Part shown: in pieces, positions 760-16,884 of the stretch
Layout: each line of letters starts with the position of its first letter
Numbering within the stretch: the first letter of the stretch is position 1
Source: an uncultured Candidatus Saccharibacteria bacterium
GTDB taxonomy: Bacteria > Patescibacteriota > UBA1384 > DTJR01
Assembly (NCBI GenBank): GCA_964487045.1
Contig: CAZAOT010000002.1
Span: 1 to 51,304, forward strand
DNA length: 51,304 nt
Direction: 5' to 3'
Notes under the pieces: model-generated
What the model was told of the DNA's origin: nothing
Database searches by the model: none
The model's input: only the letters and a program-made list of their open reading frames with translations
Made by a program: the position numbers and the translations under genes

Positions 760-2531
760 TTTCTTTTAGTTCTCTCGGACGGATCGGTTGTAATTAGCGG
801 ATGCTCGGCTTCACTCGCGGTTATCTTAACGGCTACATGGTGCTGATCGGCAATTATTAACGCCTCGCCTCGCTCGCAAGTAAGAAGGAATCGTTGTTCG
901 TATTCGCTTAAACGGAATTCCTGTGCAACATTTCTGATAGTAGTCGTATCTTGTCTCATTAGAATTCGCAGAGCGCTTTGGGAAGCTATGGCTCTGCCGT
1001 GATTTGTTGAGAGAAAGTCATTGGCTTGCTGAGAAATAATGCTGACCCCGAGGTAATATTTTCTGGCTCTGCGGACCATGCCAGCAATAAATCTAGCTGA
1101 TTCTTCATGCTCAAGCATTAACCATGCCTCATCTATAACAAAGATTCTTTTGCAAATATCGCCTTGGACTTGGTTTTGGACGAACTGAGCGATGATTAGA
1201 TGCATTATCTGCCGGATAGATTCCGGCAAATCTTTGGTATCGAAAACTACCAGGCGGTTATCAAGTTCAATGTTGGTGTGCTCATCAAAAACCTCTGAAA
1301 GCGAGCCGGTGGTGTATTTCTGCAATCGTTTTACCAGTCTTGGTTGTTTGAGCGATCTCAAGGTTGCATAGAAGTCAAACATTCGAGGATAGTCTTTGTT
1401 TCTCTTTACTTTATTGGCGGCTTTCTTTCCGAAGCCGAACTTTTTGTAGGTTTTAAGAATGGCTTGATCGACAACCGATTTCTCTTCGGGTGAGAGTCCG
1501 TCAGCCATTAATGAAATGATCTCTGTCAGCGATTGCACATGATCAGCGAAGCTATCAGGATCGTTGACCGATAAATCAAACGGGTTGATTTTTTCCTTTG
1601 AATGAACGGACAGTTTTATTCTTGTTCCGCCAACCGAAGCGGCCAATTGCTGATATTCTCTCTCCGGATCAATAACTATAACTTTAGTTCCTTGCATCAG
1701 GTGACGAAGCACCTCGACTTTGGCGGTGTAGCTTTTACCCGCGCCTGATTGAGCAAAAAGTATCGAATTGGCATTTGGCAGGGAGAATCTATCTAGTATC
1801 ACGAGCGAGCTATTAGAGCGGTTGATGCCGTAAAGCACGCCAGACTCATGCACCAGTTCGGACGAGATAAACGGAAAGGTTAGGGCAGCGCTTGAGCTGT
1901 CGAGATTTCTTTTTTGCGCTAGCTGATTGTCGCATCTTGGCAAAGCCGACTGGAAGCCCTCGATCTGCTGATAGAGGGCGGATTTTGTGTAAAATAGTCT
2001 GGTAGCCAACACTGTTTCTAAAAGCTTTACTGTTCGGTTAAGTTCGGCCAATGTCTCGCAGGATAAAGTAATGTATAGAGAAACCTGGAAAAGGTTCTCC
2101 TGTCCGCGCTGAATTTTATCTCGAAGTTCAATGGCTGAATCAAGCGGGTCTGTTAGTTCTGCGCCGATTATCTTGCCGGCTCTCTCCATGGCACGTTTGG
2201 TTGATGTTAGCTCGGTAATTTTCCGGTTTAGTTTCGGCAAGGCCAGCATGGCGTCTATCGGTTCTATGTGATATGAGATGTCGGCGTTATGATTGAAATT
2301 GATCAGATGGTTAAGCCAGCCAGATGAAGCGGTATAGGGAAAACCGGAAACGAATAAGGTTTTCACATAGCGGCCGTCAACAATTAAATAGTCCGGATAT
2401 TCTTCAAGTCCCGAATAGGTAATAAAATCAAGCTGATCTTGAGAGCCGACATGAAAAGAAAGGGCCCGTTTTTGCTCCTCGACCTTAACTGCCTTTTGTC
2501 TTCGTCTTCTTTTAAATATAGTCCTGCTCAT
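756..2531 (-). CDS. VirB4/PrgJ-family T4SS ATPase, C-terminal (ATPase) part
   Basis: Walker A QSGAGKSYT and Walker B RIFVIDEAW; length and position after a PrgI-like gene fit VirB4; the N-terminal domain is in the preceding ORF. Confidence 0.85.
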   Translation of the reverse strand: MSRTIFKRRRRQKAVKVEEQKRALSFHVGSQDQLDFITYSGLEEYPDYLIVDGRYVKTLFVSGFPYTASSGWLNHLINFNHNADISYHIEPIDAMLALPKLNRKITELTSTKRAMERAGKIIGAELTDPLDSAIELRDKIQRGQENLFQVSLYITLSCETLAELNRTVKLLETVLATRLFYTKSALYQQIEGFQSALPRCDNQLAQKRNLDSSSAALTFPFISSELVHESGVLYGINRSNSSLVILDRFSLPNANSILFAQSGAGKSYTAKVEVLRHLMQGTKVIVIDPEREYQQLAASVGGTRIKLSVHSKEKINPFDLSVNDPDSFADHVQSLTEIISLMADGLSPEEKSVVDQAILKTYKKFGFGKKAANKVKRNKDYPRMFDFYATLRSLKQPRLVKRLQKYTTGSLSEVFDEHTNIELDNRLVVFDTKDLPESIRQIMHLIIAQFVQNQVQGDICKRIFVIDEAWLMLEHEESARFIAGMVRRARKYYLGVSIISQQANDFLSTNHGRAIASQSALRILMRQDTTTIRNVAQEFRLSEYEQRFLLTCERGEALIIADQHHVAVKITASEAEHPLITTDPSERTKRK

Positions 2532-3132
2532 TTGTCTGCCTTATTATTTGTTTCATTAACGGTTGCGTTTTTGCCTGATCTGGACGATAGAAGCTATAAA
2601 ATAGATCCAGCACTTCCAAAGTGTTCAGAGGCTTGGCGTTCATACCGAACTTTTCCAGACCTTTGATGATAATTTCCTGTTCCAAATTCAGCTGCTCTTT
2701 TACCACTTCAAATTCAACCGGAGCCTTTGAGTCGTAAGGAATTACCAAATAGAAACGGCGCGACAGTATCTTGTTGCCGGCGACTAATTTCTTGATAAAC
2801 TCGCAGTACGACTTGCTTTGGTTTACATAAATCTTTTCTTTTTCACCGGCGCATTTTTGCTCGAAGTCCTCCAGGTAACGGTCGATATCCAGCTCTCTGA
2901 CGCGGATTAATATTTGAATTGGAGAGTTCAGGGAGTTAAGAAAGGTTTGAAAAGTATCGACGATTACATCTTGTTCCTCTTCGCTTTGCAGTTCGAAATT
3001 AACCGATGAAGTTGAAAGTATGGCGCGATAACGATTAAACGGCAGAACCAGTATTCCGTCTCTGACTTCCTTGATTCCCACTTGGCTTCGAGCTGAGCCG
3101 AACTTTTCACGCTTCTTGGTATTCAACATCAA
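2512..3132 (-). CDS. VirB4 N-terminal domain encoded as a separate ORF (split VirB4)
   Basis: The N-terminal pattern IKEVRDGILVL...RAILSTSSVNFELQSEEEQDVIVDTFQTFLNSL..PIQIL is typical of Gram-positive VirB4/TcpF N-termini. 206 + 591 aa together give about 790 aa, a normal VirB4 length. It overlaps the next ORF by 20 nt. Confidence 0.5.
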   Translation of the reverse strand: MMLNTKKREKFGSARSQVGIKEVRDGILVLPFNRYRAILSTSSVNFELQSEEEQDVIVDTFQTFLNSLNSPIQILIRVRELDIDRYLEDFEQKCAGEKEKIYVNQSKSYCEFIKKLVAGNKILSRRFYLVIPYDSKAPVEFEVVKEQLNLEQEIIIKGLEKFGMNAKPLNTLEVLDLFYSFYRPDQAKTQPLMKQIIRQTNEQDYI

Positions 3133-3595
3133 ATCCTCCTTTCTTTGACGGTCGGATCGAAACTATCGAACCGGAGCTTTCAATTATTGGTCTATCAACT
3201 GATTTATTTCTCTTGTTCTTCTTTTTAGCGATTTGAGCAATCGGTGCCATTTCTTCCCGGGCAATCTTTGTCTCTACTAACTGATCTCTGCTCAAGATGT
3301 CATTTTTGGTGAAAATATAGATTCTGGGTCGAGCCTTGTATCGTAGATAAATTACCAGCCAGTCTGCCAGAATTCGTCCTTTGTAGCGAAGAGCAAGCAA
3401 GCCGAAGACTGCAAACTCGGCAATCATCAAGACGATTTTCAAAGAGCTCAGGTGAAGCTTCGGTGGAATCAGCCCGTAGAAGGCAGTGCCGATAATCAAA
3501 GAAAATACCAAAAGGATTATTTGTATGAAATTTAATGAGCCGGCAATTTTATCTTCGACTGTGGTTATTTGTGCCGGTACGACTACTGATTTCAT
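3107..3595 (-). CDS. PrgI/VirB3-like small T4SS membrane protein
   Basis: N-terminal VPAQITTVEDKIAGSLNFIQIILLV followed by two TM helices, lying between the VirB6-like and VirB4 genes as in pCF10 prgH-prgI-prgJ. Confidence 0.5.
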   Translation of the reverse strand: MKSVVVPAQITTVEDKIAGSLNFIQIILLVFSLIIGTAFYGLIPPKLHLSSLKIVLMIAEFAVFGLLALRYKGRILADWLVIYLRYKARPRIYIFTKNDILSRDQLVETKIAREEMAPIAQIAKKKNKRNKSVDRPIIESSGSIVSIRPSKKGGFDVEYQEA

Positions 3596-4857
3596 TTGGC
3601 CCTCGCTAGTTTAGTTGCTGCTCCGGCAGTTTTACCTGAATTCGAGCTAATGACATTAATTATCTGAGTTGAGAATTTCTTTAAGGTGTTGCCGGCTTGC
3701 GAAGACATGGCGAGCTGAACGGTCACTGAAGTGCTTTTGAGTAGAACGGAGAATAAGGCGACGCCGACCAGTATTCCGATGATCGGGTTCTCGCCGATTT
3801 GACCGGGTACGGTTAGGAAAGCAGAAGCCAGTTGAATAATTACCACATGCAGAAAAACGGTAAAGATTGTAACTACATATATCTTCACAGCATTACCGAC
3901 AAAGTCAGACATTTTAGTGGATAGCGATAGCAGACAGACGAGCGGAGAGATAACTGCGCCAAAAGCCAGTATCATTAAACGGCTGATGTAGAATATCAAC
4001 AAGACCACAGCCAGCAATATAAAAAGAATCGCAAATATCAAAGTTATTAAAGCGGTTGTACCGGAGAGCAGTGCTGCCGGATCAAAAGCATTTATTATCC
4101 AGGCGCTTGAGAGCCCGCCGGTTGCATGAAGAACTGTATTGACCATTACTTGGCATAGCTCTATTATCCAATCGATCCAGAAGATAGAAGTATTCGCCAG
4201 TAGAAAGGCCAAGCCAATTCTCGGCAAGAGCTCTTTTAGCGGGAGGTCATCAAATCCGAATGATGATGCGCTCATTACTCTAAATCCCAACAGTGCAATC
4301 GCAATAGCGAAAAGCGAATCAGTGATTCCAACGATAATCAGCCAGAAGTTAAAAATGACTGAGTTAGTTGAAAGCGAAGGAGTGGAAGTCAAAAACCAAA
4401 GAATGCCGTTTAGTATCGGCTTAGTCACCGAGCCGACAATGTTTTGCAAAAATCCTGAAACCGCATCCAATAGAATTTGAGTCAGAGTTCCAGCTTGCTG
4501 AGTAGGCTCAATCGGAGCCAGTTGCAATGCGGTAGCAGATCCGCCGCTTGAGCTTTGCATTAAAGATTCGCTTAAGAGATTCGACATAAAGGCGGCAGCG
4601 ATTACTATTACCAATCCGATCAGAGCATTTCTTATCGTTCTTTTGGCGTCTTCAAGCGCGGCAGGATTGCCGGTTGAGGTGATGTACAGATAACCGCCTC
4701 GAACCAGAAAGAAAACGACAGCAGTCCCAGCTAATGCCAGAATTGCCGTCATCGCGTCAGAGGCAAAATGATCGACCTCGGCGTTGGAGGCAGCAAAAGC
4801 AACTCCAGGAATTAGGAGCGGAGTTATGATCCCGATTCTAATTATTAGTTTTTTCAT
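3592..4857 (-). CDS. VirB6/TrbL-like polytopic T4SS membrane protein with an N-terminal pilin-like module
   Basis: Signal peptide plus GGYLYITSTGNPAALEDAKRTI, a paralog of the upstream pilin motif, followed by at least 6 predicted TM helices. Confidence 0.55.
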   Translation of the reverse strand: MKKLIIRIGIITPLLIPGVAFAASNAEVDHFASDAMTAILALAGTAVVFFLVRGGYLYITSTGNPAALEDAKRTIRNALIGLVIVIAAAFMSNLLSESLMQSSSGGSATALQLAPIEPTQQAGTLTQILLDAVSGFLQNIVGSVTKPILNGILWFLTSTPSLSTNSVIFNFWLIIVGITDSLFAIAIALLGFRVMSASSFGFDDLPLKELLPRIGLAFLLANTSIFWIDWIIELCQVMVNTVLHATGGLSSAWIINAFDPAALLSGTTALITLIFAILFILLAVVLLIFYISRLMILAFGAVISPLVCLLSLSTKMSDFVGNAVKIYVVTIFTVFLHVVIIQLASAFLTVPGQIGENPIIGILVGVALFSVLLKSTSVTVQLAMSSQAGNTLKKFSTQIINVISSNSGKTAGAATKLARAK

Positions 4858-4866
4858 AGATCAAAT

Positions 4867-5187
4867 CTATTTAAAAGACTGATTGGCTAAATCCGAGACT
4901 ATACCGCTTAACACCAATGCTCCGATACAAATGGCCAAGCCGATAGATGAATAAACGAGAATCTTTTTTGACCGATCAAGATTTTCCGGATTTCCGGAAG
5001 AAGTAATGTATCCGATACCGCCCATAACAAAAAAACCGGCTGCGAGCAGACCGGCGATGGTGACGAGAACCTGGATGACGTTAGTTGCGAAGTTTTGGAC
5101 TTTAGAGAGGTCGGGGGCGGCAAAGGCCGTTGAAGCCGACAACAAAACAATTAGTACGGAGACCCAAAGAGAACGGAGACGTTGCAT
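4867..5187 (-). CDS. T4SS pilin-like protein (VirB2/TrbC analogue, GNP-motif family)
   Basis: 106 aa with signal peptide, TM helix, GGIGYITSSGNPENLDRSKKIL and a second TM helix. First gene of the operon, with SD GGGAGGGGAG upstream. Confidence 0.55.
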   Translation of the reverse strand: MQRLRSLWVSVLIVLLSASTAFAAPDLSKVQNFATNVIQVLVTIAGLLAAGFFVMGGIGYITSSGNPENLDRSKKILVYSSIGLAICIGALVLSGIVSDLANQSFK

Positions 5188-5561
5188 AGTTACAACTTTC
5201 TCCCCTCCCTACTGAGGATGCTTTCGGCATCACTCAATTAATTTTTATATTAATTTGATCTCTGCCTTACGATTCAGTTTTATCACTCCTAGTTAGCGCT
5301 TGTCAAGCATTGCTGAGTTTCAAGCTCAATCAGGCTCACTTTCCACGACTCATTGTATGACAAGCTCATACTTCGCTAGACATTTATTCGTCTTGAAAGC
5401 TAGCCTGAAAACGGGGCCAATACCAATATTGTCGTGCAAATTTCATAAGCTTCGCACACTCTTTCAGAGAAAGCTTACTTATTCATTCGCCCATCATTGC
5501 TCGCTTAGCAACTTTTACTTCAATTTCATTTGCGCAAAAGATACTTGCTCGCCAAGAGAAA

Positions 5562-5957
5562 TCATCTGGAATGTTTGGCTGCGATTGATATAGCTTCTGT
5601 GATCATCTCTTGGGGGATGGCCTCATAGCTTTTGCCATCCCTGATAATAGTTCTGCAGTTACTTCCTGTCCCTGCGAGACAAGAACATGAGTGACAATAG
5701 TTTTCCGATGCTGTCGCCTCTAAAATATCCTCGATTTTTTGCCCGTTAATTAGCACTGTGTTTGAATCGGGCATTTTGTCGGCTTCGAGCTTCGTCTCTT
5801 TGTAGATAATCTCAATGTTCTTGAAATCTTTGTCTTTCAATATTGTTTCAATGGCTGCTTTGACATTATCGCCGGTATTGTTGCATCTGGTGCAGGTCTC
5901 ACCTTCTTTGTCGTAGTGCATCCACTCAATATGTAACTTTTTCAATTTCTCCTCCAA
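5562..5957 (-). CDS. DUF2703-like small Cys-rich protein
   Basis: CTRC near the N-terminus and CHSCSC...C later. Recalled to co-occur with ArsR/permease/thioredoxin-like genes; this comes from memory only. Confidence 0.45.
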   Translation of the reverse strand: MEEKLKKLHIEWMHYDKEGETCTRCNNTGDNVKAAIETILKDKDFKNIEIIYKETKLEADKMPDSNTVLINGQKIEDILEATASENYCHSCSCLAGTGSNCRTIIRDGKSYEAIPQEMITEAISIAAKHSR

Positions 5958-5958
5958 T

Positions 5959-6939
5959 TTATATAACCAGATTAAGTATATATCCCATTATCATAATTCC
6001 AATAATAGTAACTCCAAAAAACATTGCCAAGAGTTGCCATTTCATTGCCTTCTTTAGAATTAAGGCCTCTGGTATGGAAATCGTAACCACGGATGTCATA
6101 AAGGTTAATGCTGTTCCTACAGGAACACCTTTCCCGACCAAAGCTTGCATAATAGGGATAACACTTACTGAGTTTGCATACCACGGCACGCCAAGCAGAG
6201 TGGCAGCAGGGATGGCCCACCAAGTTCTCATGCCCAAGTAGCGCTGGATAAAACTCTGAGGAATGTAGCCGTGAATGAAAGCTCCGATGGCCACTCCGAG
6301 TAACACATAAGGGAATATTTTTTTGGTAATATCCATTCCGTCTTTCCACCAAATCTTTAAGCGTTGTGAAAGCGGTGGCTCTTGCCCTCCATTATCAAAG
6401 GCAACTTGAGCGCGGTCTTTAAACTTCATAAGGTCTGAATTAACATATTTGTCCATCTTGAGTCTCTGTATCAGCATTCCTCCTAAGATACTTATGACGA
6501 TCCCCAGAACATTATAGATTATGGTGATCTTAAGGCCGAAAAGCGATGGAAATAGGAATAGTGAGGCTTCATTTACGAGCGGAGAGCAAATTAGAAAAGC
6601 AAAGGTAATACCCAGTGGAATTCCTGCTCCAAGGAAACCGATAAATAACGGGATAGATGAACAGGAGCAGAATGGGGTAACAACCCCGAGAAGCGCCGCA
6701 AAAAGATAGTCCAAGCCGAACCAACGTCTTTTAGTTAGTAAATCGCGTACCTTTTCCATCGGGAAGTAGTAGCGAGTTATGGCCATAAGGTAGTTAATGA
6801 AGACAATCAAAAGTCCGATCTTGATTGTGTCGTATATCAAAAAGTCTACAGCATTTCCAAGGTAGGTGCCCTGAGCAATGTGCAGCCAATTGTATGTGGC
6901 AACGTCAGCCAAAAGCTGAATTGGTTTAAATATATCCAT
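5959..6939 (-). CDS. Permease of the UPF0718/ArsP-like family
   Basis: About 8-10 TM helices and the TPFCSCSSIP vicinal-Cys motif characteristic of this permease family. Confidence 0.7.
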   Translation of the reverse strand: MDIFKPIQLLADVATYNWLHIAQGTYLGNAVDFLIYDTIKIGLLIVFINYLMAITRYYFPMEKVRDLLTKRRWFGLDYLFAALLGVVTPFCSCSSIPLFIGFLGAGIPLGITFAFLICSPLVNEASLFLFPSLFGLKITIIYNVLGIVISILGGMLIQRLKMDKYVNSDLMKFKDRAQVAFDNGGQEPPLSQRLKIWWKDGMDITKKIFPYVLLGVAIGAFIHGYIPQSFIQRYLGMRTWWAIPAATLLGVPWYANSVSVIPIMQALVGKGVPVGTALTFMTSVVTISIPEALILKKAMKWQLLAMFFGVTIIGIMIMGYILNLVI

Positions 6940-6953
6940 TTGGGTTCCCCTCG

Positions 6954-7259
6954 CTACTTATTATCGCAGGCACAACTGATTGCTCCCTTAACAGCATCTC
7001 CAACCTTACTGGCGACAGACTTCTTCTTGCCGCTTAGAAATTCTTTTATATCGTTAGCGCTTAGAGCCTTACCGGAAGATACCACAACGCCGTCTATCAC
7101 TAGAGCAGGGACAGACATGATTCCCATTTCAATGATTTTTGTCATATCTGTGGTATATTCAACCTCTATTTGTAAATCAAGCTCTTTAATGGCTTGTAAG
7201 GTTTGCTCATGCAGTTGTTTGCATGATCCGCAACCGGGACCCAATACTTGGACTTTCAT
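6954..7259 (-). CDS. Thioredoxin-fold protein (redox-active disulfide protein 2 type)
   Basis: MKVQVLGPGCGSCKQL has CxxC at the N-terminus of a roughly 100-aa protein; 4-nt overlap with the ArsR gene. Confidence 0.75.
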   Translation of the reverse strand: MKVQVLGPGCGSCKQLHEQTLQAIKELDLQIEVEYTTDMTKIIEMGIMSVPALVIDGVVVSSGKALSANDIKEFLSGKKKSVASKVGDAVKGAISCACDNK

Positions 7260-7573
7260 ATATCTCCTTTCATCTTAATTATTTGCTCTAATAAACCACC
7301 ATACTTTGTCATCTCTCCCTGGTCGATTGAATAAAATACGTTTAATCCTTGTTTTCTGTGATTTAAGACACCAAAATCGCGAAGTATTTTTAAGTGGTGC
7401 GAGACCAAGTTCTGAGGCAAACCTAAAAATTCCTGTATCTCACAAACGCACTGCTCATTGCTTTTTTGAAGAAAGCAAATAATTCTCAGGCGGTTTTCTT
7501 CTGATATGACTCGGAGAAAGTCAGCAAGCAGAGGCAAGTTCACATCATTTTTGTTGCAACAATATTTTTCCAT
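7256..7573 (-). CDS. ArsR/SmtB-family metalloregulator
   Basis: Winged-HTH length with CVCEI metal-site motif and LSHHLKILRDFGVL recognition helix; first gene of the 4-gene operon. Confidence 0.8.
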   Translation of the reverse strand: MEKYCCNKNDVNLPLLADFLRVISEENRLRIICFLQKSNEQCVCEIQEFLGLPQNLVSHHLKILRDFGVLNHRKQGLNVFYSIDQGEMTKYGGLLEQIIKMKGDI

Positions 7574-7583
7574 AAACCAACTA

Positions 7584-7601
7584 TATCAATGCTTATTGAT
7601 A
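7584..7601. promoter_or_regulatory. Candidate ArsR operator (7-4-7 perfect palindrome)
   Basis: tatcaat-gctt-attgata lies about 10 nt upstream of the arsR-family start codon. Confidence 0.4.
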
Positions 7602-7802
7602 CATGTCAACTGACGAGTACCTTATATTGAAAAGTTCCTCCCGCCAATCTTCCCATCTTATAGAACAAACGGCCTGTCCGCCTCAAGGTCGTTCATATCG
7701 TAGTGTGCTCCACCTTGACCCGTCCATGCCATTTGTTCTTAGTCCTCCATTAGACAGGCGGGAGGTCGATCCGCTTGTTTAATTACTAATTAGGAGGTAT
7801 TT

Positions 7803-8126
7803 ATGAGTACTCGACAAATCGATAACAGGACCCAACAAGCAATATTAAACGATCAGTTTAGGAAGTTAGGCTTCGGGGCTACGATAACTAACGGTGCCGC
7901 AACGCTACCAGACATAATAGGTTTGATGAGCGCCATAAGAGCATACGATGAGTTTACTGAGGACAATGATCCGTACGGAGAGCATGACTTTGGTAGCTTA
8001 GTGTGGCACGGTGAAAAGGTTTTCTGGAAGATTGATTATTATGACCGGCAATTGAAATGTTATGAGCATCCGCTGACCGGCACCTGCAAACGGGTGATGA
8101 CAGTGATGCTTGCAGAGGAGTATTGA
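7803..8126 (+). CDS. DUF3768-like protein (plasmid/ICE-associated)
   Basis: DNDPYGEHDFG motif and about 107 aa length; SD aggagg lies 6 nt upstream. Confidence 0.5.
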   Translation: MSTRQIDNRTQQAILNDQFRKLGFGATITNGAATLPDIIGLMSAIRAYDEFTEDNDPYGEHDFGSLVWHGEKVFWKIDYYDRQLKCYEHPLTGTCKRVMTVMLAEEY

Positions 8127-8132
8127 ACAAAA

Positions 8133-8170
8133 GAGCCCCTGAGGTTTCGACCACTTCGGGGGCTTTTTTT
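8133..8170 (+). terminator. Intrinsic terminator after the DUF3768 gene
   Basis: agcccc...ggggct stem followed by ttttttt. Confidence 0.7.
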
Positions 8171-8175
8171 ATTGG

Positions 8176-8952
8176 CTATTCCCAAATCTCAGCACTGATT
8201 CCATGTTTTCGAATCTCATCATTGATCGCAAACCATGCTTCGAATTCTCCTGGGTTTTGATAATCATCAAGCAGTTTCTTCATCGTTCTTTTTGCAAAAA
8301 TCATTAGAGTCAAAGTCTGGCAAGCGAAAAGAATTGTTGGAAATGGTCGGCCTATATTTTCTTCCCATTCATTAGTAAAGAAAAATTCGATATAGTTCTT
8401 CATTCTCTTTTTAATCATGTATTTGGGCGAAACGGAATCCAATTGGACAAGAATATACTGCTTGGATTCCTTTTTGGATTCTTTAGTAAATATCAGCTGC
8501 GGGCTCAAATCTTCCATAAAAGAATATAGAGGATTTGAGGTGACACCCGCGGCTGTTTCATATGAGTATTTGATTTTCCCTTGATCGTTTATATCTAACA
8601 GATTAAGACAGATATTAGCCAGAAATATCTCCTCATCAATAAAGCTCTGCGATCTCTCATTGTCGCGGTAGAGCTTTTTGAGATAGTTGGTATTGTCATG
8701 GTTTAAAGACTTATAGTATCGAATAGCATTTATACCGGCATAGTAGATTGCCGGTTTAGTATTAGCTCCGATAGTATTTGAATATATTCTGTTTAGGTAT
8801 TGTTTCTCGTTTAGGTCTTTGAGCCAGGTGTTAATTGTTTTAGGATCTTTGTGTTTTAGGAGTTGTTGAATTTGGGCTCTGTTTAGGAATCGGAATTGAT
8901 AGACAAGAGTTAGTATCTCTGTTTGTTTGTTAGTTATTTTTGGTAATGTCAT
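8176..8952 (-). CDS. Replication-relaxation family protein (candidate relaxase/MobT-like)
   Basis: The N-terminal wHTH pattern ITNKQTEILTLVYQFRFLNRAQIQQLL is typical of Replic_Relax proteins; it lies next to the T4CP gene. Confidence 0.5.
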   Translation of the reverse strand: MTLPKITNKQTEILTLVYQFRFLNRAQIQQLLKHKDPKTINTWLKDLNEKQYLNRIYSNTIGANTKPAIYYAGINAIRYYKSLNHDNTNYLKKLYRDNERSQSFIDEEIFLANICLNLLDINDQGKIKYSYETAAGVTSNPLYSFMEDLSPQLIFTKESKKESKQYILVQLDSVSPKYMIKKRMKNYIEFFFTNEWEENIGRPFPTILFACQTLTLMIFAKRTMKKLLDDYQNPGEFEAWFAINDEIRKHGISAEIWE

Positions 8953-9087
8953 TTTAATTAAAGTTTGAGTTAGTTTACATAGTTAGCCAACCCCACCTAC
9001 TCCATACTTATGTATGGGTTAGCGCGACAAATATTTTGTACCTAGCCTCATTATTCGGCTATTCTTGCCCTAGCCCTCTAGGGCAAA

Positions 9088-11730
9088 TTAGATGCTCTTA
9101 CGGACATGCTTCAAGGTATTTATCGAAGGCTCGTCAATCAGCTTTTCCTGAATGTTTTTGGGCTTAGCCGTCGGCTCTTTCTTCTTTTTGACCATTCCCG
9201 TGAAGATCATCTCCAAATACTCATCTACCTCATCTCTTGGGGTAGCATATTTCTCCCTGGAGCGGGCTAGGACAGCTTTTTCTACTTCATCGCTTGGCGA
9301 TATATCAAGCGGAACAGTAACGCCGGAAAAGGCGTTCTCGCTGGCTTCGTTGCTGACTTTCATATAGAAGTGATATGGAGCTAGGTTTACAATATCTCCC
9401 TTTTCGACTTCCGGCTCCATAAATGGTAGTATAAACTTTTCTTCATCCGGACTAGCCTTTAGACATATAATTGTATTGGCGTTGCCGGCTACTACTTTCA
9501 AAATGCTCTGATCTTCGACTTGAGCAATGTTCTGATGGGAAGCAATCAACCCGATTCTGAACTTTCTACCTTCGCTTGTTATCTCGGAAAATCTTGGCGT
9601 GGCAAAATTTTGGAACTCATCAACATATAGAAAGAAATCCCGTCGTTTGTTTTCCGGAATCTTGGTCCGTTGATAAGCCGCCATCCAGATTATTGAAGTC
9701 AATATTGTGCCGAAGAAAAAGCTTTGGTCCTCGCCTAAGTCGCCTTTAGCTAAATTAACCAGCAAGATCTTGCCTTCATCCATGATCTGGCTGATACTAA
9801 TGGTGCTCTTTTCTTGAAGTAAAATATGGCGGGACATTTTGGCAGTAATAAAATGGCCGAGCCTTTGAGTCAGTGGAGCGGTTACGCTTGAGAGCTGCAT
9901 TTTGCCAAGCAAGGCAAACTCTTTATTCCAGAATTGTTTTAGAACCGGATCTCCGAGCGATGCAGCCGTTTTTTTCTGGAAGCTTTTATCGGTCAAAAGT
10001 CTTTGCAGGGTCCAAAGACTTGGGTTTTCGGTTTGCAGAGCCGTCAAGGTGGTATTGCGCAGGATATGTTCCATTCTTGGGCCCCAATATTCTTTAGCTG
10101 TCATCTTAGCGAAGACCGCTAGAACAGAGCTGGTAATCCACTCTTCCTCATCCTCCTTGTCTTGGAACTTAACGCCAGGTGAGAGAATATTCAATCCGAT
10201 TGGCCATTGCCTGTCGGAAGGATCAAAGACAATAACATCATCTTTCCTGTTCTCCGGAATAAGCTTTAAGAGCTCGTGAAACATATCTCCATGCGGATCA
10301 AAAACAGCTAAGCCTTTGCCGTTTACCATATCCTGATAGATTGAGCTTTTGAGCAGAGTGGTTTTTCCAGTTCCTGTTTTGCCGATGACATACATATGCT
10401 TCCGGCGTTGTTCCAGCGTTACACCGATCGGGGTTTGGTATCCAGCATAATCGTTAGACCCAAGTATAATATCTAACTCGGGATTTTCTTTCTTGAACGA
10501 TAGCGGAGCCGGCAACTCACGACTTCTGACACGAGACAAATCTTCAGCATGAACATCTGTAGTAAATGGGAAATGATAAAGCGCTCCGATTTCCGATGGG
10601 GTTAACACCAGCGATCCGCCAATGCGGTGCTTAAACTTCCATAATTGAATTGCTTGAGAAATGACACCAAAGTAATTTCTTTTAACTATTAATGTTTGTC
10701 CGCAAGTATGGCGGTAGCTCATGAATGAAGACCGCAAACCTTTTTCCCGCTCAATCATTTGACCGCTTTCGACTATTAGAAGAGTGCGGATGTTCGTCTC
10801 AAAAAGCGGAGAGCTGAGTTTTGCTTTGGACAGCTCGGAGAATTCAATGTCAGCCGGTGATGGCTCAAATTTTGTTGAAGTAATAGGAACTTTGGTTTCA
10901 TTGCCGGAAACAAATTCAGCTAGAAAAAGAATTGGAACCATTACTACATGAGTGACAAATTCCAATACCCAAACAAAGACTTTAGCTGATCTCTGAGCTT
11001 GGGTATTCTGCGACCAATCAATATGCGGATTACGCCGTAATACTTTTCTCAACCTAGCAGTTTCATGTCTCAAGCCATTTTTACTAGAGTGAATCAATGG
11101 TCTCAGAACAACCTGTAGCGATAAAAGCTCGCCGTCTTTAAGCCGCGACATGTTGGATGTCAAATACGCCAAAGGATCATGCTTGTTAAGATCGGCCTGC
11201 TCACTTAATGGCAGACAGAAATGTTTTTGCTGTGCGAACTCCAAAACCTTTACATTGTTGGAAATTGCTTGAGGTATATATTCTTTAATATGTTCGATCT
11301 TCAAATCCGGTGTATATGCTCGCAAAGTTTTTTCAATAGTTGATGCATAAGACTTTGGGGTGCGGATAACATATTGGATGCCAGTTTCTTTTTTGGAAAC
11401 AATTTCGAATGATGCGGAGATTTGCCGAAAGGTCAGTTTGTCTTTCCATGACTTTTGTTCCAACAGACCCATAATCAAATTGAATAATTGAGTGTTGGAA
11501 ACATTTTGGATCTTGGTATCAACAGGCGGAGTAATTTCCAAAAAAACATATTGCTCTTTCAAGTGGCGGAATAATCGAACTATGTATAAAACAATTACAA
11601 AAAATAGCCATAAGGCTATTAAGTAGAGAGCAATAATGACTAAGCGACTGTAGAGGCCAACCATCTGAGGAGACCAAAATATACGACTAATGCTTTGGAA
11701 GAGGGATAAATTGGAGATACTAAAATTCAT
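9088..11730 (-). CDS. Type IV coupling protein (VirD4/TraG-like ATPase)
   Basis: N-terminal TM helices, Walker A GKTGTGKTT and Walker B-like FFLYVDEFQNF; 880 aa. Confidence 0.8.
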   Translation of the reverse strand: MNFSISNLSLFQSISRIFWSPQMVGLYSRLVIIALYLIALWLFFVIVLYIVRLFRHLKEQYVFLEITPPVDTKIQNVSNTQLFNLIMGLLEQKSWKDKLTFRQISASFEIVSKKETGIQYVIRTPKSYASTIEKTLRAYTPDLKIEHIKEYIPQAISNNVKVLEFAQQKHFCLPLSEQADLNKHDPLAYLTSNMSRLKDGELLSLQVVLRPLIHSSKNGLRHETARLRKVLRRNPHIDWSQNTQAQRSAKVFVWVLEFVTHVVMVPILFLAEFVSGNETKVPITSTKFEPSPADIEFSELSKAKLSSPLFETNIRTLLIVESGQMIEREKGLRSSFMSYRHTCGQTLIVKRNYFGVISQAIQLWKFKHRIGGSLVLTPSEIGALYHFPFTTDVHAEDLSRVRSRELPAPLSFKKENPELDIILGSNDYAGYQTPIGVTLEQRRKHMYVIGKTGTGKTTLLKSSIYQDMVNGKGLAVFDPHGDMFHELLKLIPENRKDDVIVFDPSDRQWPIGLNILSPGVKFQDKEDEEEWITSSVLAVFAKMTAKEYWGPRMEHILRNTTLTALQTENPSLWTLQRLLTDKSFQKKTAASLGDPVLKQFWNKEFALLGKMQLSSVTAPLTQRLGHFITAKMSRHILLQEKSTISISQIMDEGKILLVNLAKGDLGEDQSFFFGTILTSIIWMAAYQRTKIPENKRRDFFLYVDEFQNFATPRFSEITSEGRKFRIGLIASHQNIAQVEDQSILKVVAGNANTIICLKASPDEEKFILPFMEPEVEKGDIVNLAPYHFYMKVSNEASENAFSGVTVPLDISPSDEVEKAVLARSREKYATPRDEVDEYLEMIFTGMVKKKKEPTAKPKNIQEKLIDEPSINTLKHVRKSI

Positions 11731-11827
11731 ATGCTCCTGGCCCGCCTCCTTATTCTGTTGTTAGGTTGCTATTTAAGGTTTAGCATAATGCGTGTATAAA
11801 TGTAAAGCCTGAGAGCAAAATAGCCTC

Positions 11828-11869
11828 TTGACAACTATCTGTATAAAGATATATTATCTATATATAGAT
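11828..11869 (+). promoter_or_regulatory. Sigma70-like promoter plus a 14-bp perfect palindrome upstream of the recombinase operon
   Basis: TTGACA (11828-11833), 17-nt spacer, ATATTA (11851-11856); atctatatatagat (11856-11869); then AGGAGGAGG and ATG at 11879. Confidence 0.5.
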
Positions 11870-11878
11870 AGGAGGAGG

Positions 11879-12073
11879 ATGGACGATCTAAGTGCAAATG
11901 CTCACATTAAGGCCAAAGAACCAAGCGAACTGCTCTCTATTGAAGAATGCAAGAAACAGCTTAAAAAGTATAACTTATCGGACGAGCAGATACTCCAGCT
12001 CAAGAACGGTTTAATTGGAATTGTAGACAGTATTATTAACTCGTATATAAATGAATTCGATCAAACCCGATAA
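11879..12073 (+). CDS. Small (64 aa) helical protein co-transcribed with the recombinase; function unknown
   Basis: Strong SD and ATG at 11879; overlaps the recombinase start. The track's 11828 start falls on the -35 box, so it was rejected. Confidence 0.35.
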   Translation: MDDLSANAHIKAKEPSELLSIEECKKQLKKYNLSDEQILQLKNGLIGIVDSIINSYINEFDQTR

Positions 12074-13706
12074 AGAATACACAAAGGCTGTTATTTACTG
12101 CCGCGTTTCCTCTGAGAAGCAGGTTAAGGAGGGAAACGGCTTAGATAGCCAAGAACATAGGTGCAGGGAATACGCTGCTTCTCTTGGCCTTGAGGTAGTA
12201 AATGTTTTCAGGGATGAAGGCATATCCGGCGGACTTTTTGATCGGCCGGCAATGAAATCGCTAATAAAGTTTTTGGATAATAATTGGCAAAACAAATACT
12301 GTGTCATTTTCGACGACCTCAAGAGATTTGCCAGAGATGTTCAGGTTCACATAAGACTAAAAACAGAACTAAAGGTTCGGGAAGCCAAGCCTTGCTGCTT
12401 AAATTATAATTTCGATGATAGCGCCGAGGGCGAATTTGTCGAGACAATTTTTGCAGCTCAGAATGAGCTTGAGCGCAAGCAAAATCGAAGACAAGTTTGC
12501 CAGAAAATGAAGGCTAGAATGGAGCGTGGATATTGGTGTCTTCAAGCGCCAGTTGGTTACGAGTACAAAAAAGATAAAGAGCATGGCAAGATTATTGTTC
12601 CTATTCCGGAAATTGCCAACATATTGGCGGAAGGACTGAATAAGTTTGCTGATGAACAGCTCGTCAGGCAAGTCGATTTACTTAACTTTTTCCTTTCCAA
12701 GAATTTGCAGGATTTGATGGGGATTAGGCGGCTTAGGTCTGATCATGTAAAGAACATTTTGACCAGGTCTTTGTATACCGGAATCGTTGAGTATCCTGAG
12801 TGGGGTGTAGAGCCGCGCGAAGGATATCACCAAGCCATAATCTCAAAAGATACCTACGAGCGAATACAAGTTCGCCTCAGAAGACCCGAGAGGAAACCAA
12901 GAGAAACAGATAGTTTGGAGTTTCCTTTGCGACGAGTGGTGAATTGTTCAGTCTGCGGTACTAAAATGACCGGTAGCGTCAGTAAAGGCAAAGTTAAATA
13001 TTATCCTCACTATACATGCAACAACAAAGAGTGCACCGCCAATCCGAAAAACATCACCGCTTCCAAAATGGAAGAAGATTATATTGATCTCTTGGATAAA
13101 ATCAAGGTCGAACAAGAGATATTGGAAATCGGCAAAATTGTCGCAACGAGAATATGGAAACAGAAAGTTAAAGATATTGACGCGAATCAAAAGATGAAAG
13201 AATCAGAGAAGAAAGAATTGGAACAAAAGATTTTTGAGTATATCGACTTAGTACCAAAAGCCAAATCAGACGCAGTAAGGACGCACTATGAGGCCAAAAT
13301 TGAGGATTTAGATAAGCGCATCAAAGAGCTGGATGAAAAAGTAGAAAATAAAAAAACGCCTGACTTTTTTGAGGCGCTTAAATTAACAATGAAATTCCTT
13401 GGAACACCGGCCGAAACGTGGGTAAACTCGAATAATCAGCTTAAAATTGTGCTTCACAATATGATATTTGCCGAGAACCCGAGTTATTGCTTAAATACCG
13501 GATTTGGAACACCTAAATTGTCGCTCCCATTCCATATAAAGGACCATATTGACGACGATAATGGTGATTTGGTGGACCCGACAGGATTTGAACCTGCGAC
13601 TTTCTGCATGCCATGCAGACGCTCTACCGCTGAGCTACGGGCCCAAAATGTATTTGATAACTTTGGTCTATATTACCATCTCCAAACCATATTTTCAACC
13701 CGTTAG
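12051..13706 (+). CDS. Large serine recombinase (Rec1)
   Basis: Resolvase-type catalytic N-terminus VIYCRVSSEKQ...DDLKRFARD, recombinase domain, Zn ribbon CSVCGTK...YTCNNKEC and a coiled coil. The last 45 codons run antisense across tRNA-Ala(GGC) and its promoter. Confidence 0.85.
   Translation: MNSIKPDKEYTKAVIYCRVSSEKQVKEGNGLDSQEHRCREYAASLGLEVVNVFRDEGISGGLFDRPAMKSLIKFLDNNWQNKYCVIFDDLKRFARDVQVHIRLKTELKVREAKPCCLNYNFDDSAEGEFVETIFAAQNELERKQNRRQVCQKMKARMERGYWCLQAPVGYEYKKDKEHGKIIVPIPEIANILAEGLNKFADEQLVRQVDLLNFFLSKNLQDLMGIRRLRSDHVKNILTRSLYTGIVEYPEWGVEPREGYHQAIISKDTYERIQVRLRRPERKPRETDSLEFPLRRVVNCSVCGTKMTGSVSKGKVKYYPHYTCNNKECTANPKNITASKMEEDYIDLLDKIKVEQEILEIGKIVATRIWKQKVKDIDANQKMKESEKKELEQKIFEYIDLVPKAKSDAVRTHYEAKIEDLDKRIKELDEKVENKKTPDFFEALKLTMKFLGTPAETWVNSNNQLKIVLHNMIFAENPSYCLNTGFGTPKLSLPFHIKDHIDDDNGDLVDPTGFEPATFCMPCRRSTAELRAQNVFDNFGLYYHLQTIFSTR
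13570..13644 (-). tRNA. tRNA-Ala (anticodon GGC), CCA encoded
   Basis: Hand-folded cloverleaf: GGGCCCG/CGGGTCC acceptor with G3:U70, D-stem GCTC/GAGC, anticodon loop ATGGCAT, T-arm GCAGG-TTCAAAT-CCTGT, ACCA. Confidence 0.9.
13670..13698 (-). promoter_or_regulatory. Promoter of tRNA-Ala(GGC)
   Basis: On the minus strand: TTGAAA, 17 nt, TAATAT, about 26 nt before the tRNA 5' end. Confidence 0.5.
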
Positions 13707-13792
13707 AGATCCGGAAAATCTAATTCGATTCTTTCGACCGCACAAACAACGAAAAGATAGAATTTTAGAATTAGATCAATCTCCTACGGGTT

Positions 13793-15325
13793 TCAAGGTT
13801 GGCGAGGTAAGATTAATGATTCGTCAAAGTAATCAACTTTTGGAAGACCGGAGAGCGAAATACATGTAGATGCAACATTGCTTAGACGAAGTCCTGGTTT
13901 TAATTTAAATTTGCCGTAATTGCTAACTACAATAAACGGAACTGGATTTTTCGTATGCTCTGTGTCTGGTCCGCCGTAGACTGGATTTACCATTTGTTCG
14001 ATATTACCATGGTCTGCAGTTAGGACTAAAATTATATCTTCGTCTAGGCAAACTTGGACTAACTCTTTTAGCACATCATCGATTGTCTGGACAGCCTGCA
14101 GGGCTGCCCTAAAATCACCAGTGTGGGCAACCATGTCTCCATTTGCAAAGTTGCATATATAAAATGGATAATCGGAGTTTTTTATATGTTTAATGAGTTC
14201 ATTTTTTACTCCAACTGCCGACATCTGTGGTTTTTGAGCATATGACTCAACAGCGGGAGAGGGTATTAGGATGCGATCTTCCATTGGATATGGTTCTTCT
14301 CGGTTGCCATTAATGAAAAATGTTACATGAGCAAATTTTTCTGTTTCAGCAATGTGAAATTGCTTTAAATTATTTTGAGAAATATATTCTCCGATAGTAT
14401 TTGATACTTTTGCTTTCTGAAATGCAATCTTAGCCTTTAGGTTTAATTCTTTTTCAATTCCATATGGGATAAATGAAATAAAGTCCAAATTAAGAAATTT
14501 ATCTCTTTTAAATTTATCAAAATCTTTTGCTAGAAATGCTTGAGACAACTGCCTGGTTCTATCAGATCTGAAATTGAAGAAAACGAGTATATCACCCTCG
14601 GAAATTCTTTTGCCACCCTCTATTATTCGAGGAGTAATATATTCGTCAGTTTCACCATCTCGATATGCCTGAGAGAGTGCGGCTAATGCAGATTTTGATT
14701 TAATTCCCTCGCCGTTTACTAGAGCATTATAAGCAGTCTGAGTTCTAACCCAATTTCCTTTTCTATCTAAGAGAACCCTGCCCATAATTGTAGCGATTTT
14801 TCCACATTTATACTGAGCTATAATTTGTTCTAAGCGATCAACAAATTCTAATCCCTTGTATACATCAGTATCTCTTCCGTCTGTAAATAGATGTAAATAT
14901 ATTTCGGGAGCATTCATGGAGCAGCATAATTCCAGAAGTGCGATTAAGTGGTCAATGTGAGAATGAATCCCTGCATCAGAAAGAATACCCATAAAATGAA
15001 TTGGAACTTTTCTTGCAATAGATGACTTAACCGCCTCGATTAATACCGGATTCTTGAAAAACTCCTTGTTCTTAATCGATCTATTTATTGCGGTAACATC
15101 CTGTTCGATTATGTTACCTCCACCTAAATTCATATGGCCTACCTCAGAGTTACCAACTTCGTGTCCAGGTAGTCCTACGTAACGTCCAGAGGCGTGCAGA
15201 AGGGTATTTGGATATGTTCTTAGTAATTTATAGAATGTTTTTGGATGAGCGGTTGAAATCGCATTACCACCCCAGCTAGAAGAAGACCCCCAACCATCAA
15301 GTATTACAAGAGCTAGCTTTCTCAT
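13793..15325 (-). CDS. gpmI: 2,3-bisphosphoglycerate-independent phosphoglycerate mutase, paralog 2
   Basis: LDGWG, NSEVGH (catalytic Ser), ANGDMVAHTG and TADHGN motifs; ATGA start/stop overlap with paralog 1. Confidence 0.8.
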   Translation of the reverse strand: MRKLALVILDGWGSSSSWGGNAISTAHPKTFYKLLRTYPNTLLHASGRYVGLPGHEVGNSEVGHMNLGGGNIIEQDVTAINRSIKNKEFFKNPVLIEAVKSSIARKVPIHFMGILSDAGIHSHIDHLIALLELCCSMNAPEIYLHLFTDGRDTDVYKGLEFVDRLEQIIAQYKCGKIATIMGRVLLDRKGNWVRTQTAYNALVNGEGIKSKSALAALSQAYRDGETDEYITPRIIEGGKRISEGDILVFFNFRSDRTRQLSQAFLAKDFDKFKRDKFLNLDFISFIPYGIEKELNLKAKIAFQKAKVSNTIGEYISQNNLKQFHIAETEKFAHVTFFINGNREEPYPMEDRILIPSPAVESYAQKPQMSAVGVKNELIKHIKNSDYPFYICNFANGDMVAHTGDFRAALQAVQTIDDVLKELVQVCLDEDIILVLTADHGNIEQMVNPVYGGPDTEHTKNPVPFIVVSNYGKFKLKPGLRLSNVASTCISLSGLPKVDYFDESLILPRQP

Positions 15326-16884
15326 CTTAAGGCTCCTAAAAGATTAATCCCGCTCATTTCAGCAGATTTTTCGATGCCCAATGACTGGGAAATCGTTGGG
15401 GCTATATCGGCAAGTATTCCGACTGGTTCGCTATTAAATAATTCATCCTTTGATATGTAGCGGCCTTTATATTTAAGGTCGCAATAGATAAACGGAACAG
15501 GATTGAGAGTGTGCTCTTTGTTTGGTTTGCCTGTAGCAAAATCAATCATTTCATCGCAATTACCATGGTCTGCGGTAATAATTACTCGATAATCTTTCCT
15601 AAGAAGCTCTCCGACTAATTTCCCCAATACCTGGTCAAGTATTGATACTGCGTTTTTGGTAGCTTCAAAATTTCCGGTATGACCAACCATATCTCCATTT
15701 GCAAAATTAGCTGCAATAAAATTAATCCCTGAATTTGCAGCTGCAACTATCTCGTTTGAAATTTCCACCGCTCTCATTTGTGGATACTGGTCAAAGCTTT
15801 TTACTTTCTTCGTCTGAATAATTTTATCGATTTCGCCATTAAATACTTTCTTATCGCCCCCTGCAAAGAAATATGTGATATGCGCAAACTTCTCTGTTTC
15901 TGCCACATGAAATTGCTTCAGATTATTCTGAGAAATTATTTGACTAAGTGGATTGCGCAGTGGATTTGTTTCGGGGTTGTTTAAATCGAGATTGGAAAAA
16001 AGCACATTAAGCCCCAGGTTGTCATCATAGGTAGTCATCGAATAGAAATTTCTAGTAATAGATCTTCGTTTGATGTCTGGTAAATTTGGATCCACAAAGG
16101 CGCGAGTCATTTGTACTGCTCTGTCAGATCTATAGTTTGTAAAAATAAAAACATCCTTAGTAAAATCAAAAACGTCTTCCGAGAAGCTTACCGGTTCAAT
16201 GAACTCATCGGTTTTTCCTGCGGCGTATGAATCTTCGATTACCTGATTCGGGTTGTTGGCTTTCTTACCAATTCCAGTTATTGCGTCATATGCAAGCTGT
16301 ATCCTGTCCCAATTTTTATCTCTGTCCATCGCGTAATATCTTCCCATCATTGATCCAAAACTAGTTAGTTTGCCAATTTGCTTAGAGATGTGGTCTAAAA
16401 ATAACTTAGATGATTTTTCCGCCGTATCTCTTCCATCAGTTATTGCGTGAAGGATAATTTTTGTTTTGGGCTTATCGCTTTTAATTAACTTAACTAAACT
16501 AATCAAATGATTAATATGTCCATGGACAGCTCCATCGGACATTACAAACAAGACATGAATGTTAGATCCTGACTCAGCGGAGTCAATGATTTTTTTATAC
16601 TCAGGTTTTTTTCTAAATTCACCATTTGTAAGTTTTAGAGTTATTTGTGGCAGATCTTGCAAAACAATTCTACCTAGGCCGATCGCAGTATGACCAACCT
16701 CACTAGAGCCAAATTCTCCCCAGGGAAGACCAACTTCTTCAGCCGAAGCTTTTAGGAGACACTTTGGGAATACTGGCAGGATAGCATCGAGATTCGGAGT
16801 AGGAGTATTTAAAATAGCATTTCCAGTGAGTTCTGGAGTTATTCCAAAACCATCCAATATCAGAAGCGCTACTTTTTTTGACAC
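15322..16884 (-). CDS. gpmI: 2,3-bisphosphoglycerate-independent phosphoglycerate mutase, paralog 1 (GTG start)
   Basis: LDGFG, SSEVGH, ANGDMVGHTG and TADHGN motifs; SD GGAGCGAGG upstream of the GTG. Confidence 0.85.
   Translation of the reverse strand: MSKKVALLILDGFGITPELTGNAILNTPTPNLDAILPVFPKCLLKASAEEVGLPWGEFGSSEVGHTAIGLGRIVLQDLPQITLKLTNGEFRKKPEYKKIIDSAESGSNIHVLFVMSDGAVHGHINHLISLVKLIKSDKPKTKIILHAITDGRDTAEKSSKLFLDHISKQIGKLTSFGSMMGRYYAMDRDKNWDRIQLAYDAITGIGKKANNPNQVIEDSYAAGKTDEFIEPVSFSEDVFDFTKDVFIFTNYRSDRAVQMTRAFVDPNLPDIKRRSITRNFYSMTTYDDNLGLNVLFSNLDLNNPETNPLRNPLSQIISQNNLKQFHVAETEKFAHITYFFAGGDKKVFNGEIDKIIQTKKVKSFDQYPQMRAVEISNEIVAAANSGINFIAANFANGDMVGHTGNFEATKNAVSILDQVLGKLVGELLRKDYRVIITADHGNCDEMIDFATGKPNKEHTLNPVPFIYCDLKYKGRYISKDELFNSEPVGILADIAPTISQSLGIEKSAEMSGINLLGALR

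Follow-up and report, generated by a model that had tools for sequence, protein, structure and literature searches.

Serine integrases are major genome-engineering tools, and how the direction of their reaction is set is an active structural question. In the large serine recombinases (LSRs) of phages, the attachment site of the mobile DNA (attP) lies outside the integrase gene, the targets lie in protein-coding genes or intergenic DNA, and separate directionality factors are used. In the SSV1-type integrases of archaeal viruses, which are tyrosine recombinases, attP lies within the int open reading frame (ORF) and integration splits the gene into two large parts. The attP of Myxococcus phage Mx8 is likewise located inside int, where integration at a tRNA locus gives the gene a new 3' end and altered properties (PMC6070905). 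A 2014 paper on the Islander program described serine integrases as not known to target tRNA genes (PMC4383910). Here we present the analysis of a 51,304-nucleotide stretch of DNA (hereafter the window) from an uncultured Candidatus Saccharibacteria bacterium, which holds one end of a candidate integrative and conjugative element (ICE), termed ICE-B, together with the gene of its LSR, Rec1.

Our reading is that ICE-B is a ~25-kb conjugative element seated at the 3' end of tRNA-Ala(GGC), that its attP lies in the Rec1 ORF, and that integration switches the integrase between two isoforms that differ in a C-terminal tail. We consider this reading as a whole very probable. The anatomy is its firmest part and is held with high confidence, whereas for a functional consequence of the tail swap the balance tips only slightly in favor. 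The evidence comprises both junctions of the element, the empty site of a relative, a conserved tail, a contiguous attP form, and a pattern of tRNA overlap and codon phase that extends across the integrase family.

Rec1 enters tRNA-Ala(GGC) antisense from its 3' end

Pfam identifies Resolvase, Recombinase and Zn_ribbon_recom domains in Rec1 (PF00239 at residues 13-161, E 2.4e-24, with further matches to PF07508 and PF13408). The YCRVSS motif, with the serine nucleophile, is kept across the Rec1 family and four Cys are invariant. By domains and fold, Rec1 is a bona fide LSR, whose body consists of a resolvase catalytic domain, a recombinase domain, a coiled-coil-bearing zinc ribbon and, at the C-terminal end, a conserved helical part.

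The Rec1 translation ends in ...NGDLVDPTGFEPATFCMPCRRSTAELRAQNVFDNFGLYYHLQTIFSTR*, the same terminus as in the original prediction, which had described the ORF as reading antisense across tRNA-Ala(GGC) and its promoter. The ARAGORN call and the ORF translation agree on this course. Codons L507-V508-D509 (13569-13577) are the reverse complement of the tRNA ...TCCACCA-3' end, and after D509 the ORF crosses the whole tRNA gene together with a TTGAAA-17-TAATAT site (13698-13670). The site is present where it had been placed; its status as a promoter was not borne out beyond a consensus match. Since 11 promoter-like consensus matches fall in 2.3 kb against 5.3 expected, a role as the tRNA promoter is plausible only.

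Both junctions share a 12-bp core and place attP inside the ORF

The same earlier reading held that the tRNA marks the right boundary of an ICE-like element and that a partial copy of tRNA-Ala(GGC) would lie at the other end. A six-frame motif search of the genome (970 kb in five contigs, C1 to C5, the window being the first 51 kb of C2) located the far end of ICE-B on contig C4, beside the leucyl-tRNA synthetase (LeuRS) gene. Inspection of the two ends reveals the same 12 bp at each, ten of which are the 3' end of tRNA-Ala(GGC) (GGGTCCACCA); ICE-B supplies at most the 10 last nucleotides of the tRNA. To the right of the core in the window stand two host genes for cofactor-independent phosphoglycerate mutase (iPGM), and both the boundary and the far-end copy are thus where they were anticipated.

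The C4 minus strand from 4155 to 4044 reads ...gaagcgaagT-TTG-GTG-GAC-CCA-ACC-TTT-AAA-ACC-TGG..., translated LVDPTFKTWNTFFDYVFEWAPVLRQVYDEDNKASRL*. The 33 in-frame codons after the core encode a conserved tail of the form W-N-T-F ... E-W-x-P-x-L, and joining the P arm (recombinase side) to the P' arm (far end) through the core restores a 542-residue ORF that carries this tail. The att-in-ORF organization proposed from the right end alone is therefore upheld by the far end, which continues the ORF in frame. Recombination is known here from its products, attL and attR with a common 12-bp core. ICE-B has its attachment site within the coding sequence of its integrase, integration changes the 3' end of the gene, and the 42 read-through codons of the integrated state stand in for the native 33-codon tail. 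The tRNA-Ala 3' region had been suggested as the target attachment site (attB), which holds for the target but not for the depth of the exchange: crossover is at the extreme 3' end of the tRNA (CCA and first acceptor bases), not deeper within it.

Comparison with genomes that lack the element reveals the empty site. A genome of the same genus (G001) has LeuRS, a hairpin, tRNA-Ala(GGC), iPGM and iPGM in that order, with 158 nt from LeuRS to the tRNA and no element in between; LeuRS also lies beside tRNA-Ala(GGC) in two genomes of the same family (G003 and G004). Flanks that are at least 25 kb apart in the source genome are neighbors in its relatives. A close Rec1 homologue is present in 5 of 30 relatives, a patchy distribution, and none was found in G001 (a genome 82% complete). 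From the empty site, this distribution and contiguous attP forms in relatives, we infer that ICE-B is mobile, by excision and conjugative transfer. Two outcomes had been named beforehand as counting against the element, a far end devoid of a tRNA fragment and relatives whose recombinase has an ordinary stop before an unrelated neighbor; neither was encountered.

Four attP sites could be compared: the window/C4 junction, the corresponding C3/C5 junction of a sister element (ICE-A, below), and two uninterrupted sites in metagenomic loci (L005 ~4880-4970 and L008 ~11510-11600). All four retain TGGTGGAC. A dyad-symmetry scan of these and two attB sites gave a weak peak only, GG/GA within TGGTGGAC. 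The P' arm contains an invariant TGGAACACC, and TGG-AAC-ACC (W-N-T) is identical in DNA, wobble bases included, in all four attP, ~18-27 bp right of the core. Besides coding for W-N-T, this trinucleotide series may be a DNA motif through which the P' half-site is recognized.

In neither attL does an ORF lead into the tail, with stops 22 codons upstream of it on C4, and the tail codons are intact at both. One might suppose that the tail is made from attL as a separate micro-protein acting in trans on the tail-less integrase, an idea that draws on the TTG-GTG with which the C4 tail begins (both possible starts) and on the purine-rich GAAGCGAAG just upstream of it. The corresponding codon in ICE-A is CTG, however, with a different sequence upstream, there is no evident promoter, and transcription of the flanking host genes leads away from the tail, which together make such a product very unlikely.

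All three tRNA-Ala genes carry an antisense recombinase

The source genome has exactly three tRNA-Ala genes, GGC (C2:13570-13644), CGC (C2:37009-37084) and TGC (C3:226265-226339), and each is entered antisense from its 3' end by an LSR ORF: Rec1, Rec3 and a paralogue in ICE-A, respectively. The ICE-A recombinase, on contig C3, is 71% identical to Rec1. Rec3 had been described as not closely similar to Rec1 and yet ending in a tRNA-Ala gene, and it indeed shares only 24% identity with Rec1 over 360 aa; a targeting logic common to the two, likewise proposed, agrees with the occupation of all three genes. The far end of ICE-A on C5 reads CTGGTGGACCT and then, in frame, LDLEFWNTFFDYALDWEPKLKDIYEQLESNQV*, placing a tail (LVDLDLEFWNTFFDYALDWEPKLKDIYEQLESNQV) in the same layout as in ICE-B.

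These data bear on the alternative that the overlap is a chance or annotation artefact in which a recombinase merely has no stop before a neighboring tRNA. The strand opposite a tRNA gene is often free of stop codons. Nevertheless, all three such LSRs in the genome and 55 of 80 related loci show the overlap, in one codon phase, the far ends carry matching cores, and a same-genus genome has the empty site; we give this explanation next to no chance.

Several observations concern the surroundings of these sites. A 20-nt copy of the tRNA-Ala(TGC) 3' end at C5:16218-16237 (in locus L003) was considered as the left end of ICE-A and rejected, as the ORF is continued from a junction ~120 nt closer to the element interior (C5 ~16091-16101). 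Between this extra copy and the left junction stands a hairpin, GTTTCGAG-GTGGTA-CTCGAAAC, which occurs again upstream of the C3 tRNA-Ala(TGC) (L001 ~13150-13260), next to a duplicated tRNA 5' end. The extra copy and hairpin may have been left behind by a previous insertion, or they may represent a small hairpin element. In G001, the distance from the second iPGM gene to tRNA-Leu(CAA) is ~1.9 kb (G001:C82, locus L102, 4240-7003) versus ~19 kb in the window (16884-37084), and no recombinase ORF overlaps its tRNA-Ala(CGC) antisense. A tRNA-Leu island and the Rec3 element seem likewise to be absent there.

The native tail is conserved and the read-through tails are not

Nearly all of 120 metagenomic and database homologues of Rec1 share sequence up to LV[DE]. 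Past this point, ~94 have tRNA-antisense tails of free length, and 9 end in a tail of the kind encoded by the two far arms. Alignment of the tail (11 rows) reveals W13 and W23 to be invariant, with N14, F16 and L27 at least 90% conserved, and this conservation spans elements whose integrases are 45-71% identical. Because tail length and sequence vary freely among the homologues in tRNA form while the attP-form tail is conserved, the codons over the tRNA and its upstream site are a by-product without selection, and the real C-terminus of Rec1 lies ~25 kb off.

Tail-bearing genes also occur uninterrupted. Downstream of the gene of homologue P0049 (L008, L009) come a helix-turn-helix (HTH) gene, a PLDc_2 gene and a small ORF, which share 49%, 65% and 30% identity, respectively, with the far-end genes of ICE-B, and no tRNA was found at this locus (L008). 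Homologue P0074 (L005-L007) has element genes downstream, a coupling protein among them. Since the tail-bearing genes that were checked precede far-end element genes, the L008 arrangement is the uninterrupted attP form. That the tail-bearing proteins are instead a separate, paralogous subfamily that does not target tRNA genes, with the C4 and C5 fragments as unrelated remnants, could appeal to attP-form contigs that are not demonstrably circular. Yet the fragments follow the tRNA-end core immediately and in frame, and do so at the far end of both elements, each of which has a tail-less integrase, the L008 genes downstream of the tail match those of the ICE-B far end, the shared TGGTGGAC spans all four attP sequences, and tail-bearing proteins are interspersed among tRNA-form homologues at every level of identity. 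We regard the subfamily explanation as highly improbable.

To a wider circle belong 80 loci taken from species genomes, with recombinases that share 35-69% identity with Rec1. They come from groups of the Candidate Phyla Radiation (CPR) and from Alpha- and Gammaproteobacteria, cultured Rhodobacteraceae among them. At the 55 loci already mentioned, the ORF extends into a tRNA that ARAGORN calls on the opposite strand, the targets being tRNAs for Ala (23), Thr (10), Arg (10), Tyr (8), Leu (2), Met (1) and Val (1), and the codon phase relative to the acceptor end is the same in 54 of these. The remaining loci mostly have tRNA-fragment-like tails or an ORF that runs off the contig end. The cultured alphaproteobacterium Roseovarius marisflavi DSM 29327 has a 19-kb element at tRNA-Ala(GGC), flanked on both sides by an 18-bp direct repeat (TGGTGGAGCCTAGGGGGA), which makes this strain a tractable host for the att-in-ORF design. 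Placement of the attachment site in the last codons is, judging from these sequences, general in the family. The conserved helix tail is seen only in Rec1-like metagenomic homologues and at the two far ends of the source genome, and it is missing from the single proteobacterial element that was checked.

A predicted docking site for the tail at the coiled-coil base

Homologue P0049, which has the attP form, was modeled with AlphaFold2 (66-row alignment, mean pLDDT 87.7). Its model presents the usual LSR domains, with paired long helices over residues 352-429, followed by a helix spanning 505-537 at pLDDT ~90. The model superposes on SPbeta integrase (9dxh) with Z 16.9 over 464 residues, on Bxb1 (9iu2) with Z 15.2 and on LI (4kis) with Z 14.0. 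Solved LSRs (SPbeta, Bxb1, LI, phiC31) align from residue 1 only to ~490-498 of P0049, so that the tail is an addition to the known fold.

The body (1-499) and the tail were also folded as separate chains, alongside three controls. The complex of body and tail scored 0.74 and the best control 0.00; that mark is reached by 58 of 80 solved complexes and by 2 of 110 mismatched pairs, counts that are rough here owing to author-made alignments. Runs agree in at least 94% of contacts, with partner pLDDT of at least 69. The conserved face of the tail contacts body residues 358-369, at the start of the first coiled-coil helix, and residues 434-446, 453-468 and 488-496, in the C-terminal half of the zinc-ribbon domain; these segments are among the most conserved of the family. 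In other LSRs, the binding site of recombination directionality factors (RDFs) is close to the coiled-coil base, and the essential helix of the SPbeta factor packs between that domain and the hinge (PMC11722253). The models thus suggest a docking site for the tail helix on the zinc-ribbon domain, at the coiled-coil base, where directionality factors act in other LSRs.

Extent and gene content of ICE-B

The features of the window and one related element are collected in Table 1.

Table 1. Positions of the features discussed, in window coordinates unless a contig is named
Feature	Position	Strand	Basis or remark
ICE-B, right-hand 13.6 kb	1-13579		Pfam, tblastx collinearity with ICE-A, contig-end overlaps
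Near-consensus promoter-like site TTGACA, 16-18 nt spacer, TATATT/TATTAT	11828-11857	+	11/12, consensus scan only
Conserved 64-aa ORF	11880-12073	+	overlaps Rec1 start by 23 nt
Rec1 ORF	12051-13706	+	551 aa, large serine recombinase
Rec1 conserved body, residues 1-509, ends L-V-D	12051-13577	+	Pfam, 120 homologues, P0049 model
attR core TTTGGTGGACCC	13568-13579		identical to attL core at C4:4144-4155; crossover inside
tRNA-Ala(GGC), attB target	13570-13644	-	ARAGORN; homologue at G001 empty site L102:999-1073
Host-encoded read-through	13578-13706	+	42 codons and stop, antisense to the tRNA gene and the DNA upstream
Promoter-like site TTGAAA-17-TAATAT with TG extension	13670-13698	-	9/12 consensus match, convergent with Rec1
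Host flank, two tandem iPGM genes	13793-16884	-	Pfam
Rec3	36986-38590	-	overlaps tRNA-Ala(CGC) 37009-37084
Roseovarius marisflavi element (L025 / L108)	G031:C50:28912 and 47921		same integrase family

The window starts inside ICE-B, the remainder of which consists of C4:4155->1 and a ~7 kb unassembled stretch. To the left of Rec1 are genes for an M23 peptidase, a VirB4-like ATPase (P-loop_TraG/AAA_10), PrgI and type IV secretion pilins, along with an ArsP/thioredoxin/DUF2703 cargo, DUF3768, a Replic_Relax protein and a TrwB-type coupling protein. Inside the C4 junction are an HTH gene, a phospholipase D (PLD)-family gene and an SNF2/PLD helicase, and outside it are the host genes for a GIY-YIG mini-protein, LeuRS, NusB and RNase III. 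Type IV secretion, coupling, relaxase-type and integrase genes, the gene set of an ICE, thus lie between the att sites, in an interior that is partly unassembled. Homologues and relatives carry the names Patescibacteria, Berkelbacteria or Saccharibacteria. The GIY-YIG mini-gene (78 aa; locus L002 on C4, 4269-4505) lies between LeuRS and the left junction and looks like a separate small insertion, because G001 has only the 158 nt there.

By tblastx, ICE-B (C4:4155->1, gap, C2:1->13579) is collinear with ICE-A (C5:~16100->1, gap, C3:232796->226265), and this synteny puts the gap in ICE-B at ~7 kb and the whole element at ~25 kb. The contig ends C1/C4 and C2/C5 overlap as reverse complements. Collinearity, gap size and overlaps suggest the order C1, rc(C4), ICE-B gap, C2, rc(C5), ICE-A gap, rc(C3), where rc denotes the reverse complement, and hence a single chromosome whose sole breaks would be inside ICE-A and ICE-B. 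Collapse of identical ICE-A and ICE-B repeats was considered as the cause of the breaks and discarded, identity near the contig ends being just 69-78%.

Upstream of Rec1, the 64-aa ORF has a good ribosome-binding site and stands behind the near-consensus promoter-like site. In L008, L006 and ICE-A, a homologous small ORF immediately precedes the recombinase gene, and the 64-aa protein is a candidate directionality factor, partner or regulator. A site scan found no terminator-like site after tRNA-Ala(GGC) in the integrated state, for which reason read-through from the tRNA, antisense to the recombinase 3' end, is likely to be a second state-dependent effect.

Proposed mechanism and its weighing

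We propose that Rec1 integrates ICE-B at the very 3' end of tRNA-Ala(GGC) by way of an attP around codons 507-510. In the excised circle, the ORF would cross attP into the far end and finish in the conserved 33-residue helix (PTFKTWNTFFDYVFEWAPVLRQVYDEDNKASRL), yielding a 542-aa enzyme. Recombination with attB within the core TTTGGTGGACCC would rebuild tRNA-Ala(GGC), strand the tail codons ~25 kb away by LeuRS with no upstream ORF, and fuse the integrase body to 42 codons that are not under selection and read antisense through the tRNA and its putative promoter. As a result of this stranding and fusion, the integrated and the excised element would encode different integrase isoforms. Loss of the helix upon integration would probably weaken the enzyme or change its direction or its response to factors, as in the Mx8 prophage form, because the modeled tail fills the site used by directionality factors. 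Convergent tRNA transcription without a terminator may additionally damp integrase expression in the integrated state.

A stronger version of this mechanism holds that the helix is a built-in directionality switch, installed and removed by the recombination reaction itself. With the groove at the coiled-coil base filled by the tail, the enzyme of the circle would integrate and be blind to directionality factors; with the groove empty in the integrated state, excision would become possible, either by the enzyme alone or with the 64-aa upstream protein in the groove. The state of the DNA would then itself encode which reaction its integrase can do. This version is advanced tentatively, and we think it rather unlikely.

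The overlap could also be neutral, that is, attP may sit at the integrase 3' end in a compact element, with a swap that has no regulatory effect, an enzyme equally able in its integrated and circular forms, and excision under other factors. The tRNA-coded tails are free in length, the native tail of Roseovarius marisflavi past the core comprises 10 unremarkable residues, and the conserved small upstream ORF could be a conventional directionality factor. A neutral tail, on the other hand, would not readily account for its retention across elements with integrases 45-71% identical, for its intact codons at both attL sites although nothing can translate them there, or for the high-confidence model in which it packs on the C-terminal domain where the surface of that domain is most conserved. 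We judge neutrality to be unlikely, though a serious contender.

Four points weigh against the proposed mechanism as a whole. The interior of ICE-B is unassembled, with ~7 kb between C4:1 and C2:1, and the two parts are linked by synteny and contig-end overlaps. Neither a circle nor an empty-site junction was found in reads or contigs of the source population, in low-depth runs that speak neither for nor against these forms. The runs examined were four of 21, all Logan contigs (X5, X6, X7, X10). Their contigs over 11500-15500 are short and of low depth, and the loose contig ends at 13567-13570 belong to tRNA-Ala genes of other organisms, none of them matching the C4 flank or tail arm. The restored ORF of Roseovarius marisflavi would stop 10 codons past the core (MVEPRGSTARSLRFCY*), without the helix, from which it follows that the helix is not needed for the basic chemistry of the family. 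Finally, docking of the tail is a model made with a shallow, 11-row tail alignment.

Comparison with known systems

The Rec1 family represents a large natural group of serine integrases that target conserved tRNA 3' ends, in which placement of attP in the last codons of the enzyme gives one isoform when the element is free and another when it is integrated. If the helix does control direction or the access of factors, the system would be a compact, protein-encoded form of self-limiting integration, and it would explain how CPR conjugative elements avoid mistimed re-excision or re-integration. There are also practical consequences: gene callers will systematically mis-annotate the C-termini of such integrases, and island finders that rely on tyrosine integrases will miss the elements.

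A literature search that covered few subscription journals, and leaves room for an earlier description, turned up no serine integrase reported to have attP within its gene and no account of the present tRNA-targeting family. A preprint on tycheposons reports LSRs in 27 of 937 elements, and its passages that were found do not mention an overlap. Phage LSRs such as phiC31, Bxb1, SPbeta and LI/A118 resemble Rec1 in domain order, fold and short att sites with a small identical core. Rec1 is unlike them in its tRNA target, in an attP within its own last codons and in its extra C-terminal helix. In engineered fusions of phiC31 Int to gp3 and of SPbeta Int to its RDF, a helix-bearing C-terminal module sets directionality (PMC5737554; PMC11722253). 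That module binds the zinc-ribbon domain and the coiled-coil base, where the Rec1 tail is predicted to lie in cis. The fusions are artificial and fixed, whereas the Rec1 helix would come and go with the recombination reaction.

Mx8 (IntP/IntX) is the closest precedent, with attP in its own integrase gene and an integrated form that has a different C-terminus (PMC6070905). Rec1 shares the position of attP with the Mx8 and SSV1 integrases without belonging to their family, because those enzymes are tyrosine recombinases: Mx8 Int and the LSR Rec1 differ in both fold and chemistry. The SSV1 gene is partitioned into two large parts, whereas in Rec1 a 33-codon tail is exchanged and the catalytic body stays intact. 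Unlike Mx8, ICE-B is conjugative and resides in a CPR bacterium, and the tail that it displaces, a conserved helix, has a predicted docking site at the coiled-coil base. What is new relative to these systems is the conjugative-element version of the arrangement, with both junctions and the empty site, the conserved displaced tail with its predicted docking, and the extension to Proteobacteria.

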